Shown: positions 35,683-40,303 of the stretch, piece by piece
Layout of the letters: every line of letters starts with the position of its first letter
Position numbering within the stretch: position 1 is the stretch's first letter
Assembly (NCBI RefSeq): GCF_041686455.1
Contig: NZ_JAWLDW010000004.1
Span: 64 to 64,063 of the forward strand
Origin: Rhodohalobacter sp.
GTDB lineage: Bacteria; Bacteroidota; Rhodothermia; Balneolales; Balneolaceae
Direction: 5' to 3'
Length of the DNA: 64,000 bases
Program-made: the position numbers and the translations under genes
The notes under the pieces: generated by a model
Seen by the model: the letters and a program-made list of their open reading frames with translations, nothing else
The model's database searches: none
Told to the model about the DNA's origin: nothing

Positions 35683-36357
35683 TTAATACCAATCTATATC
35701 TCTGATTTCAAATAAGTCTTCATCAGAGGGGTCTGTATTGATCAATATTCCGCCGACGGCCAACAGTGGCTTACCTTCTAAATAGGAAAGACAGGAAGTG
35801 ATGATTTCCCTGATTTCATGTTTAATCTCATCATATGTTATTTCAGTAGCAGTTATGACTTGGTCTTCTGAATTGGAAAGTTTTTTCCAATTTTTTCGAA
35901 GAAGATTTTTCACCTCCTCCTGTTGATAATCATACTGTGGCTTTTTAGAATTCTCATTATTTTTTAATGTATTGAGTGCTCCTATGACTGAACCGCAACT
36001 TGAAGTATTAAGTTGTTGCCCGGCCCGGTGTACTTTTCCGATTTCACCTTCTTGAGTAATTCCAACATGAGGTCCATAGACAATAAAAGCACCTCCATTA
36101 TCTGGTATATGGCTTGAAAAAGCTTTAAAACCAGTCTTGCCCGCAAAAGGGATTCCTGAAATACCCCCAAGGATAAAAGGCCCAAATGTTTCAAAATATT
36201 CATCTAGCTGATGAAGACTCTGATTAACTTCGTCACTACAAACCGAGGTTGCCCAAAGTGTATTTTTTTGGTTTAAGTTTTTTTTAGATAGTTTTTCTAG
36301 TACAAATTCTTGGAGTTTGGGAATGGGTACTGCTCTAGGGAAATAGTTGTCTATCAT
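35683..36357 (-). CDS. LCIB/LCIC-type beta-carbonic anhydrase homolog
   Basis: SVCSDEVN, F.LGG.SGIPFAGKTG..AF..H.P, GPHVGI, HRAG, SCGS; gives the Cys/His/Cys zinc-ligand set and Asp/Arg of the LCIB_C_CA family. Confidence 0.8.
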   Translation of the reverse strand: MIDNYFPRAVPIPKLQEFVLEKLSKKNLNQKNTLWATSVCSDEVNQSLHQLDEYFETFGPFILGGISGIPFAGKTGFKAFSSHIPDNGGAFIVYGPHVGITQEGEIGKVHRAGQQLNTSSCGSVIGALNTLKNNENSKKPQYDYQQEEVKNLLRKNWKKLSNSEDQVITATEITYDEIKHEIREIITSCLSYLEGKPLLAVGGILINTDPSDEDLFEIRDIDWY

Positions 36358-36472
36358 TTTTACTTATTAATTAGAAATAGCATCTAAATTTAAAGAAAAG
36401 GCAAGTCAGTTTCATTGAGCTGAAAAGCATTTCTGATAGCAAATGGACGACGGACTAACTGCTATATCGATT

Positions 36473-37933
36473 TTATTCACCTTGGCCGGACGAAAAGGCG
36501 GGTTCATTGTCGAACAGATAAAGGTTTTCCGTTTTAATGATATCTATAGCATGTTTGGTTAATCTTTTTTGAAGATCAACAACTTTGAACTGAGTGGCTT
36601 TCCCATTCATAGATTTAAATCTGCATCGCCAATGATCTGTACAAAAAGTTTCTGGATTACCATTTGGCCATACTTTTGTACCTCGATTTGTAATCATGGT
36701 CAGTTCAAACTCCTCACTGGCTGCGTCATTAAGTCTTTGAGCAAGTAGATTTATATTTTGGGGTTCCCAATAGATAAATACGTCCACTCCGGTAAGAGTC
36801 CTTTTTTGAGTTGCAGAAGGTTTATTTTCTGACCTGCTCAATTTTAATGCCGGGATCTGAAAATTAACGGCTCCGGATGTAGAAACTTTTGAAAGTGTTG
36901 CCGGCTTCTGTCCTAATCTCTCGATTACAGCTTGGGTGAAATCTTGAGTGGAAGCTTTGAGCTTGCTGTCGTTATTAAATATGTCAGGAGTGTGAATTCC
37001 ATCTTCAAGAGTTTTAAGCCAGGCATTTTGAATATTATCCGCTTGAGTAAACTGCCCAAGATGCCTTAACATCATTACAGAAGCTTGAATGAGAGCCGAA
37101 GGATTTGCAATATTATGGCCGGCAATATCCGGGGCTGATCCATGAATTGCTTCAAACATAGCTGTTTTTGTTCCAATATTTGCTGAGCCCACCATACCCA
37201 CTGATCCTGAAATCTGAGCTGTGATATCTGAAACAATATCTCCGTACAAGTTCGGCATAACTACTACATCAAACCGCTCAGGAGTGTCTGCTAGTCTGGC
37301 AGTTCCAATATCCACAATTAAATTTTCTGATTCGATGTGTGGGTACTCTTTGGAAACTGTTTTAAACACATCGTGAAAAAGACCATCCGTCAGTTTCATG
37401 ATATTGTCTTTTGTAAGACAGGTTACTTTACTTCGGCCATTCGATTTTGCATACTCAAAAGCGTAGCGTACGATTCGTTCAGTACCGGGAAGGGTGATTA
37501 ATTTAAGGCATTGGTATACTTCAAAGGTTTGTCTGTGCTCGATACCGCCGTATGTATCTTCTTCATTTTCGCGGATTACAATTACATCCATATCCGGATG
37601 TTTGGTTTTAACAAATGGATGGTAAGCCCTGCATGGCCTTACATTTGCAAAAAGGCCGAGAGTCTTTCGCAATGTTACATTTAAACTTTTCACACCGCCT
37701 CCCTGGGGGGTAGTAATAGGAGCTTTTAGCAGAATTTTATTCTTTGAGATTATGTCCCAGCTTTTATCTTCGATCCCCGCTTTAATACCTTTGTTATAAA
37801 CTTTTTCACCTACTTCAATTGACTCATAAATGAGATTAGAATTAGCCGCATCTAGAATTTTTAAGGTAGAATCCATTATCTCAGGACCAATTCCGTCTCC
37901 GTGCGCCACAGTAATTGTTTTCGTAAAGCTCAT
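36473..37933 (-). CDS. icd: isocitrate dehydrogenase, long form with C-terminal extension
   Basis: GDGIGPEI, KAPITTPQGGG.KSLNV, RENEED.Y, K.NIMKLTDG, PNLYGDI.SD, EAIHGSAPDIAG, C-terminal MITNRG.KVWP..CTDHWRCRF. Confidence 0.92.
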   Translation of the reverse strand: MSFTKTITVAHGDGIGPEIMDSTLKILDAANSNLIYESIEVGEKVYNKGIKAGIEDKSWDIISKNKILLKAPITTPQGGGVKSLNVTLRKTLGLFANVRPCRAYHPFVKTKHPDMDVIVIRENEEDTYGGIEHRQTFEVYQCLKLITLPGTERIVRYAFEYAKSNGRSKVTCLTKDNIMKLTDGLFHDVFKTVSKEYPHIESENLIVDIGTARLADTPERFDVVVMPNLYGDIVSDITAQISGSVGMVGSANIGTKTAMFEAIHGSAPDIAGHNIANPSALIQASVMMLRHLGQFTQADNIQNAWLKTLEDGIHTPDIFNNDSKLKASTQDFTQAVIERLGQKPATLSKVSTSGAVNFQIPALKLSRSENKPSATQKRTLTGVDVFIYWEPQNINLLAQRLNDAASEEFELTMITNRGTKVWPNGNPETFCTDHWRCRFKSMNGKATQFKVVDLQKRLTKHAIDIIKTENLYLFDNEPAFSSGQGE

Positions 37934-37992
37934 TATTTTTTGTTTAAATGTTGAATATGCGGCGAAAAAATAGGGTGCTTTTTGTATAAATA

Positions 37993-38026
37993 ATAATTAA
38001 CATAAATGATTATAATCATAAGTTAT
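37993..38026. promoter_or_regulatory. LysR-type boxes in the icd/lysR divergent promoter
   Basis: ATAA-N7-TTAT at 38012-38026, imperfect ATAA-N7-AAAT at 37993-38007, 14-bp palindrome ATGATTATAATCAT at 38006-38019. Confidence 0.6.
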
Positions 38027-38934: not shown

Positions 38935-39042
38935 ATTTTATTCGTTTACCAATTTTTAGAATAGGGCTACTTCGCTCTTATATTTCCCGGTTTTTTTATT
39001 TAGTTTCGATGGTTTTAAGTTGAAAAAAATATAATACTGTTA

Positions 39043-39999
39043 ATGGAATCTCTGCTATCAAATTTTACATCACCTATTGTGATGGCTTTTGTCTTGGGAA
39101 TCGTTGCAAAAGTAGTTAAGAGTGATCTTGAATTTCCGCAACCTATCTATAAGGCCTTATCGATCTACTTGCTGCTTGCAATTGGATTAAAGGGGGGGGT
39201 TGAACTTAGCACTACGGCTTTTTCTGACTTCATTTGGCCAGTTGTTGCTACAATTTCCTTAGGTATTTTAACCCCACTCATTGCATATGCAGTATTGAGA
39301 TATATGGGTAAATTTGATGTCTCAAACGCGGCGGGTATTGCTGCACATTACGGTTCTGTTTCGGCAGTAACATTCATAGCTGCTATCAGCTATGCTGAAA
39401 GTTTAGGAGACTCTCCCGAGGGTTTTCTTCCTGCCCTTGTTGCATTGCTGGAGGTGCCGGGAATTATTGTTGCTTTGATGATACCTCAAATTATTAATTC
39501 AGGTTCAGGTTCTGTTAAAAAAGCACTTCACGAAGTTGTAACAGGCAGCAGTATAATTTTGTTGCTTGGAGGATTGATAATTGGATATTTGGCAGGTCCT
39601 AAAAGTTTTGAACCGGTAGCCCCATTTTTTGTAAATGGTTTCCAGGGGGCTTTAGTGCTTTTTCTACTGGAACTTGGGATGATTACCGCACGCAGGCTCG
39701 GTGATTTGAAAAGAGCGGGCTTTTTCTTGTTGGGATTTGGAATAATAGTGCCTATCCTCTTTGGGTTTATGGCAGTTTTAGTAGGGCTCTGGTCAGGTCT
39801 AAGTGTAGCAGGCAGTTCTGTATTTGCCGCTATGGTTTCCAGCGGGAGTTACATTGCAGCCCCTGCAGCTGTAAGAATTGCATTACCAAAAGCAAGTCCT
39901 ACACTTTACCTTACAGCATCACTTGGAATAACTTTTCCTTTTAACATTACGCTGGGTATTCCATTATACTATGTAATTGCAACTTGGTTTGGAGGTTAA
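39043..39999 (+). CDS. sbtA: sodium-dependent bicarbonate transporter (SbtA/DUF897)
   Basis: S.YLL.AIGLKGGVEL, AAHYGSVSAVTF, FLLELG, SYIAAPAA.R, LG.TFPFNI.LGIPLY. Confidence 0.92.
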   Translation: MESLLSNFTSPIVMAFVLGIVAKVVKSDLEFPQPIYKALSIYLLLAIGLKGGVELSTTAFSDFIWPVVATISLGILTPLIAYAVLRYMGKFDVSNAAGIAAHYGSVSAVTFIAAISYAESLGDSPEGFLPALVALLEVPGIIVALMIPQIINSGSGSVKKALHEVVTGSSIILLLGGLIIGYLAGPKSFEPVAPFFVNGFQGALVLFLLELGMITARRLGDLKRAGFFLLGFGIIVPILFGFMAVLVGLWSGLSVAGSSVFAAMVSSGSYIAAPAAVRIALPKASPTLYLTASLGITFPFNITLGIPLYYVIATWFGG

Positions 40000-40000
40000 T

Positions 40001-40303
40001 ATGAAGTTAACAGAACTGTTTTTGGTAACCATTATATCTGAGAGAATTTTGAGAGATGATTTGGTAGATCTGATCAAGAAAAATGGCGGTAAAGGATACA
40101 CAATTACGGATGTTGAGGGAGAGGGCTCAAGAGGTACAAGGGTTAGTGATTTTGAAGGCAAAAATATCAAAATTGAAGCCGTGGTAAGTCGAGAAGTAGG
40201 AAATAACATAATCGATCAAGTTGCTGAACACTACTTCGAAAATTATGCTGTTATAGTATATGCAAACCCTGTAAAAGTAGTAAGGGGAGATAAATACATT
40301 TAG
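40001..40303 (+). CDS. sbtB: PII-like regulator SbtB
   Basis: ATG 1 nt after the sbtA stop; G.KGYTI.DVEG.GSRG, NIKIE.VVS, YFENYA.IVY, V.VVRG.KY. Confidence 0.88.
   Translation: MKLTELFLVTIISERILRDDLVDLIKKNGGKGYTITDVEGEGSRGTRVSDFEGKNIKIEAVVSREVGNNIIDQVAEHYFENYAVIVYANPVKVVRGDKYI

Follow-up and report, generated by a model that had tools for sequence, protein, structure and literature searches.

An inorganic-carbon gene module built around a supernumerary isocitrate dehydrogenase in Rhodohalobacter

Why should a marine heterotroph keep a bicarbonate transporter and a carbonic anhydrase (CA) beside a gene for isocitrate dehydrogenase (IDH), and does this IDH consume or release CO2? The question is raised by a window of 64,000 nucleotides from Rhodohalobacter sp. 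(Balneolaceae), in which a preliminary description had placed five genes between yidD and an rRNA pseudouridine synthase gene. All ORF positions agreed with this layout, LCIB-type CA and icd on one strand, lysR, sbtA and sbtB on the other, and each family call held in profile searches (Table 1). The CA gene had looked AT-richer than core genes by eye. This was confirmed by its GC3 of 0.28, at the 0.9th percentile among 1848 ORFs that encode 200 aa or more; on the same scale, sbtA ranked at the 2.7th, sbtB at the 3.6th and icd at the 6.3rd percentile, and lysR, at the 38th, was ordinary.

Table 1. Features of the locus, with positions in the window.
Feature	Positions	Strand	Basis or remark
yidD	35360-35623		flank of the module on one side
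LCIB-type (theta/beta-like) carbonic anhydrase, 224 aa	35683-36357	-	PF18599 (LCIB_C_CA) 186 bits
icd, long (Thermus-type) homodimeric-family IDH, 486 aa, extra C-terminal domain	36473-37933	-	profile and PDB matches
icd/lysR divergent control region, 98 nt	37934-38031	.	two LysR-type boxes and a palindrome, read from sequence
LysR regulator, CbbR/NdhR/CmpR branch, 300 aa	38032-38934	+	HTH_1 and LysR_substrate
SbtA-family (Sbt_1) putative Na+/HCO3- symporter, 318 aa	39043-39999	+	PF05982 373 bits
PII-like SbtB, 108 aa	39977-40303	+	P-II 64 bits
S4/PseudoU_synth_2 gene	40426-41337		flank of the module on the other side

The CA aligned to the active diatom enzyme PtLCIB4 (5B5Y), and its zinc ligands Cys40, His97 and Cys121, together with Ser41, Asp42 and His83, were invariant in 16/16 LCIBs compared. 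No signal peptide was found on it, and the other CA of the genome, on C59, carries one of the lipoprotein type. Thus, the LCIB protein is apparently the only CA of this genome that is cytoplasmic.

The cassette SbtA is a short form without the cytoplasmic loop of cyanobacterial SbtA, and the Synechocystis protein (7CYE) matched it at 88.8 bits, split into two stretches. Homologues with 45-63% identity are paired with sbtB in many phyla. SbtB scored 99 bits against Thermus TTHA0516 versus ~49 bits against cyanobacterial SbtB structures, and the two reading frames share 23 nt at the sbtA-sbtB junction, implying that their translation is coupled. The same genome also encodes an NDQ Na+-pump rhodopsin.

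Direction of the isocitrate dehydrogenase reaction

The cassette icd matched Iso_dh (329 bits) and Isocitrate_DH_C_bact (140 bits), and scored above cutoff against both NF006673 (744 bits, cutoff 509) and TIGR02924 (690 bits). The Thermus thermophilus IDH (2D1C) aligned at 394 bits over the full length, extra C-terminal domain included. The cofactor site, HGSAPDIAGHNIANP, reads HGSAP-DI-AG..A-NP and has the NAD-type determinants Asp-Ile-Ala (PMC4813160 describes these determinants, which serve as markers in PMC13147460). The DI..A motif was present in every Balneolales module icd. KY occupies the site in the NADP-dependent Thermus IDH and in one unlinked icd copy, and the wider module family varies, with Arg-Arg, possibly an NADP type, in some SbtA2-type loci. 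From this motif, the cassette IDH is predicted to be NAD+-dependent. Since an NAD-linked IDH is poised oxidatively, a carboxylase role is not supported; flux would run in the oxidative direction, with CO2 most likely a product of the enzyme and not a substrate that it fixes. Nor is it the only IDH. A search for a second icd returned a monomeric NADP-IDH on C202 (TIGR00178, 1302 bits) and a 336-aa NAD-IDH-like gene on C75 (best match NAD-IDH 6LKY), which brings the genome to three IDHs and makes the cassette icd supernumerary.

The preliminary description had put forward the opposite direction, a carbon-concentrating mechanism: the CA would convert imported HCO3- to CO2 for fixation by reductive carboxylation of 2-oxoglutarate (2-OG), with the cassette IDH as carboxylase. 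In a variant, the monomeric NADP-IDH would be the carboxylase and the NAD-IDH would close a substrate cycle. To raise CO2 in the cytoplasm, a cell would pair a transporter with a free CA there, and the substrate of IDH is CO2, not HCO3- (PMC10880623, Table 1). Moreover, rTCA/roTCA autotrophs often co-locate DIC transporters and CA with IDH, an arrangement interpreted likewise (PMC13147460). PFOR and a KorAB-like 2-oxoacid:acceptor oxidoreductase, both present in the genome, leave the reverse-oxidative TCA cycle compatible with its gene content, and the Arg-Arg of some distant module icds counts on the same side. However, the NAD-type signature opposes this reading, and reductive carboxylation costs about +11.7 kJ/mol with reactants at 1 mM (PMC13147460, Table 1). 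The absence of Rubisco noted for the window extended to the whole genome, 94% complete, in which RuBisCO_large had no match; neither ATP-citrate lyase nor a large biotin carboxylase (a pyruvate-carboxylase-sized biotin protein or a 2-oxoglutarate-carboxylase-type enzyme) was found there. Physiological NADH/NAD+ ratios make the carboxylation much less favourable, and a diffusion barrier is not known. The gene content, with rhodopsin, a putative 2-oxoglutarate dehydrogenase E1 (called from N-terminal sequence only) and PEP carboxylase (PEPC), is typical of an aerobic marine heterotroph. Finally, a module variant with DAB as transporter (see below) hydrates CO2 and so delivers none. Given also that a housekeeping NADP-IDH is encoded elsewhere, we consider CO2 fixation by IDH decidedly unlikely here.

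Recurrence of the linkage among Bacteroidota

We scanned 401 Bacteroidota genomes for the long (Thermus-type) icd and for SbtA. The former occurred in 79, the latter in 99 and both in 49, an odds ratio of 8.9 that is not corrected for phylogeny. The two genes lay no more than 1.7 kb apart in 13 of these 49 genomes, against ~0.1 expected by chance, so that their clustering greatly exceeds a random association. A DIC transporter adjoined 14 of 84 long-icd loci in the census, and in a Balneolales subclade (support 100) 16/16 icds were linked. Within the genus, lysR-icd is accompanied by sbtAB, a CA or both, in varying order, in the yidD-rluB slot or at other sites. The transporter was SbtAB, a divergent SbtA2 or DAB/MpsABC: one Rhodothermia genome has mpsC-icd-dabB-dabA-PII-betaCA, and distant families have lysR<-icd->small ORF->SbtA2. 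The CA position was filled by three LCIB lineages of 35-40% mutual identity, with a canonical beta-CA (Pro_CA, ~180 bits) standing in for LCIB in four genomes. Hence, icd is the constant hub, and transporter and CA are interchangeable. Because icd keeps company with inorganic-carbon (Ci) genes across Bacteroidota even where the parts are exchanged, the link is real; functionally, too, the coupling is genuine and conserved. In one close relative (G017) sbtAB has been lost, and in eight members of the genus an LCIB is all that the yidD-rluB slot retains, so the parts can work separately.

A possibility was that the true unit is lysR-icd, a 2-OG- or citrate-responsive control of a spare IDH comparable with CcpC and the TCA genes in Bacillus, and that the Ci genes hitch-hiked into a recombination hotspot between yidD and rluB, with no shared function. 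This is the commonest pairing, as an orthologous LysR was found at ~24 of the 84 census loci (~24/70 close long-icd loci), and 12 loci of the close set had LysR-icd without any Ci gene. In addition, the yidD-rluB slot is variable within the genus and the cassette is deviant in composition. Yet, linkage to Ci genes recurs at various chromosomal sites, orders and strands, with non-homologous transporters (SbtA, SbtA2, DAB) and CAs (three LCIBs, beta-CA), and co-directional icd-sbtA-sbtB and icd-dabBA strings lack lysR. On the icd tree, linkage required at least 12 state changes and was nevertheless strongly clustered (0/500 shuffles as low). We therefore regard hitch-hiking as highly improbable.

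Regulator and proposed role of the module

Among solved relatives, LysR was closest to NdhR (5Y2V; 232 bits, 40% identity, no gaps across 290 aa), followed by CmpR (149 bits) and the next LysR (91 bits), which sharpened the earlier CbbR/CmpR-like assignment to CbbR/NdhR/CmpR-like. Its top NCBIfam match was CbbR, at 228 bits under the cutoff of 450. For NdhR, 2-OG is a corepressor, and the protein represses sbtA and its own gene (PMC8042125). By analogy with this relative, the effector of the module LysR is probably 2-OG or a related carbon-status metabolite. The icd/lysR intergenic region contains a candidate LysR-type box, ATAAATAATAATTAAC (37986-38001, T-N11-A, about -47 from the lysR ATG), a second candidate, ATAAGTTATCGTTTAT, directly upstream of that ATG, and a 14-bp palindrome, ATGATTATAATCAT, at 38006-38019. 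Because 15% of shuffled sequences contained one box of comparable quality, the evidence lies in conserved position: boxes at -46 to -51 and -14 to -19 were kept in 15/17 homologous intergenic regions, distant families included.

One way to read this arrangement is that LysR senses Ci limitation and induces HCO3- uptake, CA and a high-flux, irreversible NAD-IDH without channelling between them, the purpose being internal CO2/HCO3- for ACC, CPSase, PurK and PEPC, in analogy to the "CA or MpsAB" supply of heterotrophs. Heterotrophs at air-level CO2 do require a CA or a bicarbonate transporter (PMC8567241; bioRxiv 10.64898/2026.09.08.750065), and MpsABC/DAB can replace SbtAB in the module. In the relative L032, the immediate neighbour of sbtA is carB, whose product, carbamoyl-phosphate synthase, uses HCO3-; in other phyla, SbtA, beta-CA and LysR recur without icd. 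However, this gives no reason why icd, rather than any decarboxylase, should be the invariant hub, and it leaves the frequent LysR-icd pairs without Ci genes unexplained. Besides, the signals read by NdhR are 2-OG and 2-PG and not Ci as such (PMC8042125). We hold a plain response to Ci limitation to be unlikely.

We favour, at about an even chance of being right, an accessory unit for 2-OG and inorganic-carbon homeostasis whose hub is the supernumerary oxidative NAD+-type IDH. The NdhR-like LysR, probably answering to 2-OG or a related metabolite, would bind the shared icd/lysR region and set both the icd-CA and the lysR-sbtAB arms. With the module on, the extra IDH would yield 2-OG, NADH and CO2, and the cytoplasmic CA, which we infer to be co-transcribed with icd, would turn this CO2 into HCO3- before it diffuses outward. 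SbtA would bring in more HCO3-, driven by the Na+ gradient and with the PII-like SbtB as its gate. HCO3- would feed PEPC, its likely sink, and other HCO3- users, restoring oxaloacetate when 2-OG is drawn off for nitrogen assimilation. For every 2-OG formed, PEPC fixes one HCO3- and IDH gives off one CO2, so that the CA would close the carbon loop and the transporter cover the leak. PEPC is present in this genome (G000) and in 21/24 module-bearing genomes, absent from 3/24, and never a member of the cluster. DAB reportedly takes up CO2, leaving HCO3- in the cytoplasm (PMC13147460), a property in keeping with recapture and not with delivery of CO2. On the other hand, any HCO3- overshoot would be lost as CO2 if an importer of HCO3- is expressed together with a CA free in the cytoplasm; this would be a design for a CO2-using enzyme, not PEPC. 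Still, management or recapture of IDH-released CO2, the second option of the preliminary description, fits the NAD-type motif, the lack of ATP-citrate lyase and the NADP-IDH elsewhere better than a carboxylating IDH does.

Comparison with known systems

We found no published description of such a module in heterotrophs, heterotrophic Bacteroidota included. The earlier remark that no operon combining these parts was known to its author is nearly correct, but in rTCA/roTCA autotrophs a 2026 survey found DIC transporters and CA co-located with carboxylases including IDH (PMC13147460). There, as in the module, no more than a few genes separate IDH from SbtA-type or DAC/DAB transporters and from CAs. 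These autotrophs have citrate-cleaving enzymes and mostly an NADPH-type IDH as carboxylase, whereas the module sits in heterotrophic Bacteroidota, its genome lacks ATP-citrate lyase, its IDH is of NAD type and supernumerary, and it has a dedicated NdhR-like regulator.

In heterotrophs such as S. aureus and B. subtilis, the HCO3- that anaplerotic and biosynthetic carboxylations need in air-level CO2 comes from a cytoplasmic CA or from MpsAB(C)/DAB, and the mpsC-dabB-dabA variant of the module uses the same parts. There, CA and transporter are alternatives, unlinked to IDH or an NdhR-type regulator; the module co-clusters transporter, CA and IDH. Its CA shares fold family and Cys-His-Cys zinc site with algal and diatom LCIBs (PtLCIB4, CrLCIB/LCIC). 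A Ser follows the first zinc-ligand Cys in both the module LCIB and wild-type PtLCIB4 (5B5Y), and the S47R mutant structure 5B60 has Arg at that aligned position. Unlike these proteins, the module CA is a compact 224-aa bacterial cytoplasmic protein, not placed around a pyrenoid, and its partner is IDH/SbtAB, not Rubisco. The IDH resembles the Thermus thermophilus enzyme (2D1C; TIGR02924/NF006673 long form) along its full length, and differs in having Asp-Ile (NAD-type) instead of Lys-Tyr (NADP) and in being an accessory third IDH within a Ci module.

The closest parallel in regulation is with cyanobacterial NdhR (CcmR)/CmpR systems, which control sbtA-sbtB along with further genes for Ci uptake, NdhR being a protein that integrates 2-OG with carbon status (PMC8042125). 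The regulator gene of the module adjoins an sbtA-sbtB pair whose SbtB is PII-like. Cyanobacteria avoid a cytoplasmic CA. In contrast, the module resides in a Rubisco-less heterotroph with no carboxysome, and the divergent partner of its regulator is an IDH, the producer of 2-OG, together with a cytoplasmic CA.

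A five-gene cassette at a variable site

Scanning the ORFs with Pfam and NCBIfam bore out the five genes of the preliminary description exactly: an LCIB-type carbonic anhydrase (CA) gene and icd on one strand and, divergently, lysR, sbtA and sbtB, flanked by yidD and an S4/pseudouridine-synthase gene. The start of sbtB overlaps the end of sbtA by 23 nt, and the intergenic gaps are 115 nt (icd to the CA gene), 98 nt (icd to lysR, divergent) and 108 nt (lysR to sbtA). Prediction of intrinsic terminators gave nothing in the gap from icd to the CA gene and, 3' of lysR, only a weak 5-bp hairpin. 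No Rfam family matched within 35200-40800. A sigma-70 scan gave 13 sites where 14.5 were expected, a model from which Bacteroidota promoters differ. The composition of the cassette is deviant: relative to the long ORFs of the genome, GC3 fell at percentile 0.9 for the CA gene, 2.7 for sbtA, 3.6 for sbtB and 6.3 for icd, so the earlier impression, gained by eye, of an AT-rich CA gene holds.

Coordinates of the features discussed (no prefix, window; G000, the Rhodohalobacter genome, with contig; L, locus in a relative's genome)
Feature	Position	Strand	Match or remark
LCIB_C_CA carbonic anhydrase gene	35683-36357	-	PF18599
icd	36473-37933	-	Iso_dh and bacterial IDH C-terminal domain; above equivalog cutoffs of NF006673 and TIGR02924
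LysR regulator gene	38032-38934	+	
Hairpin 3' of lysR	38963-38978		
Sbt_1/SbtA permease gene	39043-39999	+	
P-II-like gene (sbtB)	39977-40303	+	
yidD-rluB slot	35624-40425		in relatives: L018-L029, L034, L035, L050
Rhodopsin gene	14794-15657	+	Bac_rhodopsin, 142 bits
Monomeric NADP-IDH	G000 C202:12850-15078		TIGR00178, 1302 bits
336-aa NAD-IDH-like protein	G000 C75:911-1921		nearest solved proteins are NAD-IDHs; under every NCBIfam cutoff
Canonical beta-CA	G000 C59:5074-5820	-	
Small ORF 5' of SbtA2	L037:1870-2157	+	
Small ORF 5' of SbtA2	L052:7992-8216	-	
Small ORF 5' of SbtA2	L053:8259-8480	+	
mpsC-icd-dabB-dabA-PII-like-betaCA-VOC	L140 (G358:C3:9000-27000), 5886-14177		co-directional
DUF6671 gene beside long icd	L033:7495-8181	-	
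DUF6671 gene beside long icd	L036:4799-5699	+	
carB 3' of sbtA	L032:11160-13988	-	

The slot between yidD and rluB is a variable site in the genus. It may be empty, hold a single divergent LCIB-CA gene (eight genomes) or the full cassette, or contain lysR-icd-betaCA, icd-betaCA or lysR-icd-sbtAB. The cassette occupies this slot in three relatives, one of which has lost sbtAB. LCIB genes occur in 12 of the 37 genus genomes.

Conservation of the link between icd and inorganic-carbon genes

The remaining long (Thermus-type) icd genes of the genus and order also adjoin lysR and/or sbtAB, with a canonical beta-CA (Pro_CA, ~180 bits) in the place of LCIB; one family has co-directional icd-sbtA-sbtB. 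Relatives that bear names among the matching loci are Balneola/Balneolaceae MAGs (L060 in G248, L065 in G270). In 401 genomes drawn evenly from the phylum, long icd was found in 79, an SbtA homologue in 99 and both in 49 (odds ratio 8.9, kinship ignored). The synteny search proposed earlier gave a recurrent linkage: the two genes lay at most 1.7 kb apart in 13 genomes, with ~0.1 expected by chance. Mere hitch-hiking of the inorganic-carbon genes appears highly improbable to us.

The close pairs include families with a divergent SbtA (SbtA2), only ~40% identical. There, in distant Bacteroidota families, a conserved ORF of ~75-95 aa with no Pfam match stands between icd and SbtA2 and sbtB is absent; the small ORF may encode a regulatory partner in SbtB's stead. 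At locus L140, in a high-GC Rhodothermia genome, the IDH module is built with DAB/MpsABC and includes a PII-like gene of its own. In two relatives the immediate neighbour of long icd encodes a DUF6671 protein, which bears zinc-ribbon CxxC pairs at its C-terminal end.

Over the sample as a whole, 84 loci with long icd were tallied: a transporter of dissolved inorganic carbon (DIC) adjoined 14, a CA only was present at 2 and an orthologous divergent LysR at ~24; none of these neighbours was present at the loci of the 42-45%-identity class. In the IDH tree, nearly all linked genes fell in a single 41-member clade, within which a 16-member Balneolales subclade (support 100) was linked in 16/16, and independent links appeared in a second clade. 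When all bacteria were surveyed from SbtA, sbtA was paired with sbtB almost everywhere and beta-CA and LysR neighbours recurred, but the link to icd was essentially confined to Bacteroidota, apart from one case in Chloroflexota. The conserved linkage with varying partners therefore makes icd the constant hub, around which transporter and CA are interchangeable.

The isocitrate dehydrogenase and its direction

The window is contig C73 of a 3.0-Mb, 94%-complete assembly. Besides the cassette enzyme, a search for a second icd returned a monomeric NADP-IDH and a 336-aa NAD-IDH-like protein that is near-universal in the order; with three candidates in G000, the cassette icd is supernumerary. Many genus relatives have a ~417-aa classical IDH, and G000 is without one. 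We ruled out that icd is the housekeeping IDH lying beside sbtAB by chance, since the monomeric NADP-IDH exists and long icd is found in just 10 of the 37 genus genomes. That the 336-aa paralogue is a homoisocitrate dehydrogenase was likewise rejected, as NAD-IDH structures match it better (411 vs 316 bits).

The cassette IDH scored 744.2 bits against NF006673 (cutoff 509), 690.5 bits against TIGR02924 (cutoff 561) and 140 bits against the C-terminal domain PF18324, and aligned over its full length with Thermus IDH (2D1C). At the cofactor-discriminating positions, however, APKYAG..I of the Thermus enzyme is replaced by APDIAG..A. The latter sequence is shared by all module icds of Balneolales, and KY is retained in an unlinked icd copy of another genome. 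In type I IDH, NAD use is determined by Asp-Ile at these positions (PMC4813160), and a 2026 autotroph survey takes the pair as its marker of NADH-IDH (PMC13147460). The name of NF006673 says NADP-dependent, but in the cassette protein Asp-Ile...Ala stands where the NADP type has Lys-Tyr, and from its sequence we predict an NAD-linked, oxidative enzyme. The LysR-linked IDH clade has a Flavobacteriia-like branch in which the motif is Arg-Arg (or K/T/L-Ile), not Asp-Ile (L053, L054, L141-L151 and other loci), suggesting that cofactor use has switched among members of the module family. Arg-Arg is also seen in some distant SbtA2-type modules.

The preliminary description took IDH for the carboxylase of a carbon-concentrating mechanism (CCM). 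Such a CCM in heterotrophic Bacteroidota, non-Rubisco and uncompartmented, would aid marine CO2 assimilation, in the dark or powered by rhodopsin: HCO3-, imported or pumped, would be converted by CA to high cytoplasmic CO2, and 2-oxoglutarate (2-OG) would be reductively carboxylated at IDH. In a variant, an isocitrate-2-OG substrate cycle between NADP-IDH and NAD-IDH would draw on the CO2 pool. In an aerobic heterotroph, an IDH linked to NAD is poised to run in the oxidative direction, and for this reason reductive carboxylation by the cassette enzyme is improbable. It is also improbable because the reaction is tabulated at +11.7 kJ/mol (PMC13147460), and because G000 has neither ATP-citrate lyase nor 2-OG carboxylase, whereas it does have a housekeeping NADP-IDH elsewhere. 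The DAB variant points the same way, as CO2 taken up by DAB is reported to arrive in the cytoplasm as HCO3- (PMC13147460).

The inventory of G000 agreed with the absence of Rubisco reported for the window: no RuBisCO_large match was found in the whole 94%-complete genome. Weak matches (54-91 bits, ORFs of ~255-460 aa) were seen in eleven relatives (G025, G032, G017, G008, G029, G003, G033, G415, G050, G037 and G043). We discarded the idea that these relatives have Rubisco, since such scores are at the level of Rubisco-like proteins and a B. subtilis control matched too; they are probably Rubisco-like proteins (form IV). The search for ATP-citrate lyase in G000 came back empty (top PF16114 match 22.4 bits, sub-cutoff), and the ATP-citrate lyase or citryl-CoA enzymes by which a reductive or reverse-oxidative TCA cycle is recognised were not found. 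As to 2-OG:ferredoxin oxidoreductase, 2-oxoacid:ferredoxin-type enzymes are present, namely a NifJ-type PFOR (TIGR02176, 1836 bits) and a 2-oxoacid:acceptor oxidoreductase of two subunits (alpha matching OAFO at 625 bits, accompanied by a beta subunit), for which 2-OG is one possible substrate. PEP carboxylase (PEPC) and ATP-PEPCK are present, and a 1217-aa ORF on C149 was taken, from its N-terminal sequence, as a putative 2-oxoglutarate dehydrogenase E1. G000 gave no isocitrate-lyase signature and only one biotin protein, of AccB size, and the ORFs listed for window 33000-43000 included no CCM shell genes. Of a biophysical CCM, energised uptake and a CA are thus there (sbtAB and LCIB-CA); a served carboxylase is not, with no Rubisco and an IDH predicted to be NAD-linked and oxidative, and no barrier or compartment was seen among those ORFs. 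An importer with a free CA is the design expected for CO2 delivery, and so we still retain the IDH-centred CCM, as a very unlikely reading given the NAD-type motif and the lack of ATP-citrate lyase and Rubisco.

Transport, regulation and a proposed homeostatic role

The LCIB protein matched PF18599 at 186.5 bits (cutoff 25) over residues 9-216. Aligned to active PtLCIB4 (5B5Y), it has the same Cys-His-Cys zinc ligands and, beside the first Cys, Ser and not Arg; C40, H97, C121, S41, D42 and H83 are unchanged across 16 bacterial LCIBs. It is a putative CO2-hydrating CA. The one further CA in G000, a canonical beta-CA, bears at its N-terminus a signal of the lipoprotein type (…FSFTAC) and is therefore expected to be exported. 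This suggests a periplasmic or outer-surface location, complementing the cytoplasmic LCIB-CA.

SbtA scored 372.9 bits against Sbt_1 (PF05982) and 88.8 bits against solved Synechocystis SbtA (7CYE; residues 7-151 and 162-317). It is shorter, 318 versus 374 aa, and the alignment omits chain residues ~159-214. Of 80 homologous loci in different phyla, ~55 have a PII-like sbtB partner next to sbtA, and the adjoining beta-CA or LCIB in many loci supports a putative bicarbonate transporter. SbtB matched P-II (PF00543) at 63.8 bits; its best structural match was Thermus TTHA0516 (99 bits), solved SbtB structures giving ~49 bits. The window also encodes a rhodopsin whose helix-C, NWLIDVPMLLFQ, has the NDQ motif of Na+-pumping rhodopsins and which could energise Na+-coupled SbtA. 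In one genus relative, sbtA is directly followed by carB, for the large subunit of carbamoyl-phosphate synthase, which consumes bicarbonate.

The LysR protein is far closer to cyanobacterial NdhR/CcmR (5Y2V; 232 bits, 40% identity, no gaps over 290 residues) and CmpR (5Z49; 149 bits) than to other solved LysR proteins (at most 91 bits). Against NCBIfam CbbR (NF045990) it reached 228.5 bits, under the cutoff of 450, and is thus a relative of Rhodobacter CbbR, not an equivalog. NdhR is a repressor of sbtA and of itself; its corepressor is 2-OG and its inducer 2-PG (PMC8042125). The divergent icd-lysR region contains two candidate LysR-type T-N11-A boxes, ~-47 and ~-15 from the lysR ATG. One box alone is no rarity in AT-rich DNA (15% of shuffles); what carries weight is the placement of both, kept in 15 of 17 homologous regions, distant families included. 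A possibility was that such a regulator governs a general low-inorganic-carbon stimulon, which we consider rather unlikely.

With about even confidence, we favour a 2-OG/inorganic-carbon homeostasis module. An NdhR-like regulator would co-control a spare oxidative NAD-IDH, the cytoplasmic CA would trap CO2 from IDH as HCO3-, SbtAB would top up HCO3-, and PEPC (encoded by 21 of the 24 genomes with the module) would then replace oxaloacetate while 2-OG is withdrawn. The main weakness of this reading is the importer and free CA. It essentially takes up the secondary alternative of the preliminary description, management or recapture of CO2 released by IDH, and adds the regulatory logic.

Marine Bacteroidota assimilate much bicarbonate, customarily ascribed to a loose toolkit of SbtA, CA and PEPC. 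Our observations point to a dedicated, regulated module, in which inorganic-carbon uptake and interconversion are tied to one TCA step via a cyanobacterial-type 2-OG/CO2 regulator, and whose parts were repeatedly exchanged while the IDH hub was retained. The regulator with its two conserved candidate boxes, the spare IDH and the compact LCIB-type CA are concrete candidates for studying how heterotrophs sense CO2/HCO3- and balance it against demand for 2-OG and nitrogen, and bacterial LCIB homologues and the puzzling long-form IDH gain a physiological context. Our literature search for icd-sbtA-CA in heterotrophs yielded nothing beyond the autotroph survey and a general idea of anaplerosis; no publication that we found describes, for heterotrophic Bacteroidota, an IDH-hub module in which transporter and CA are interchangeable and the regulator is NdhR-like. 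Every part belongs to a known family, NdhR control of sbtAB is already known in cyanobacteria, and for rTCA autotrophs the proximity of DIC genes to IDH was already noted in 2026. In autotrophs such proximity is interpreted as support for a carboxylase; in heterotrophs its meaning may differ.
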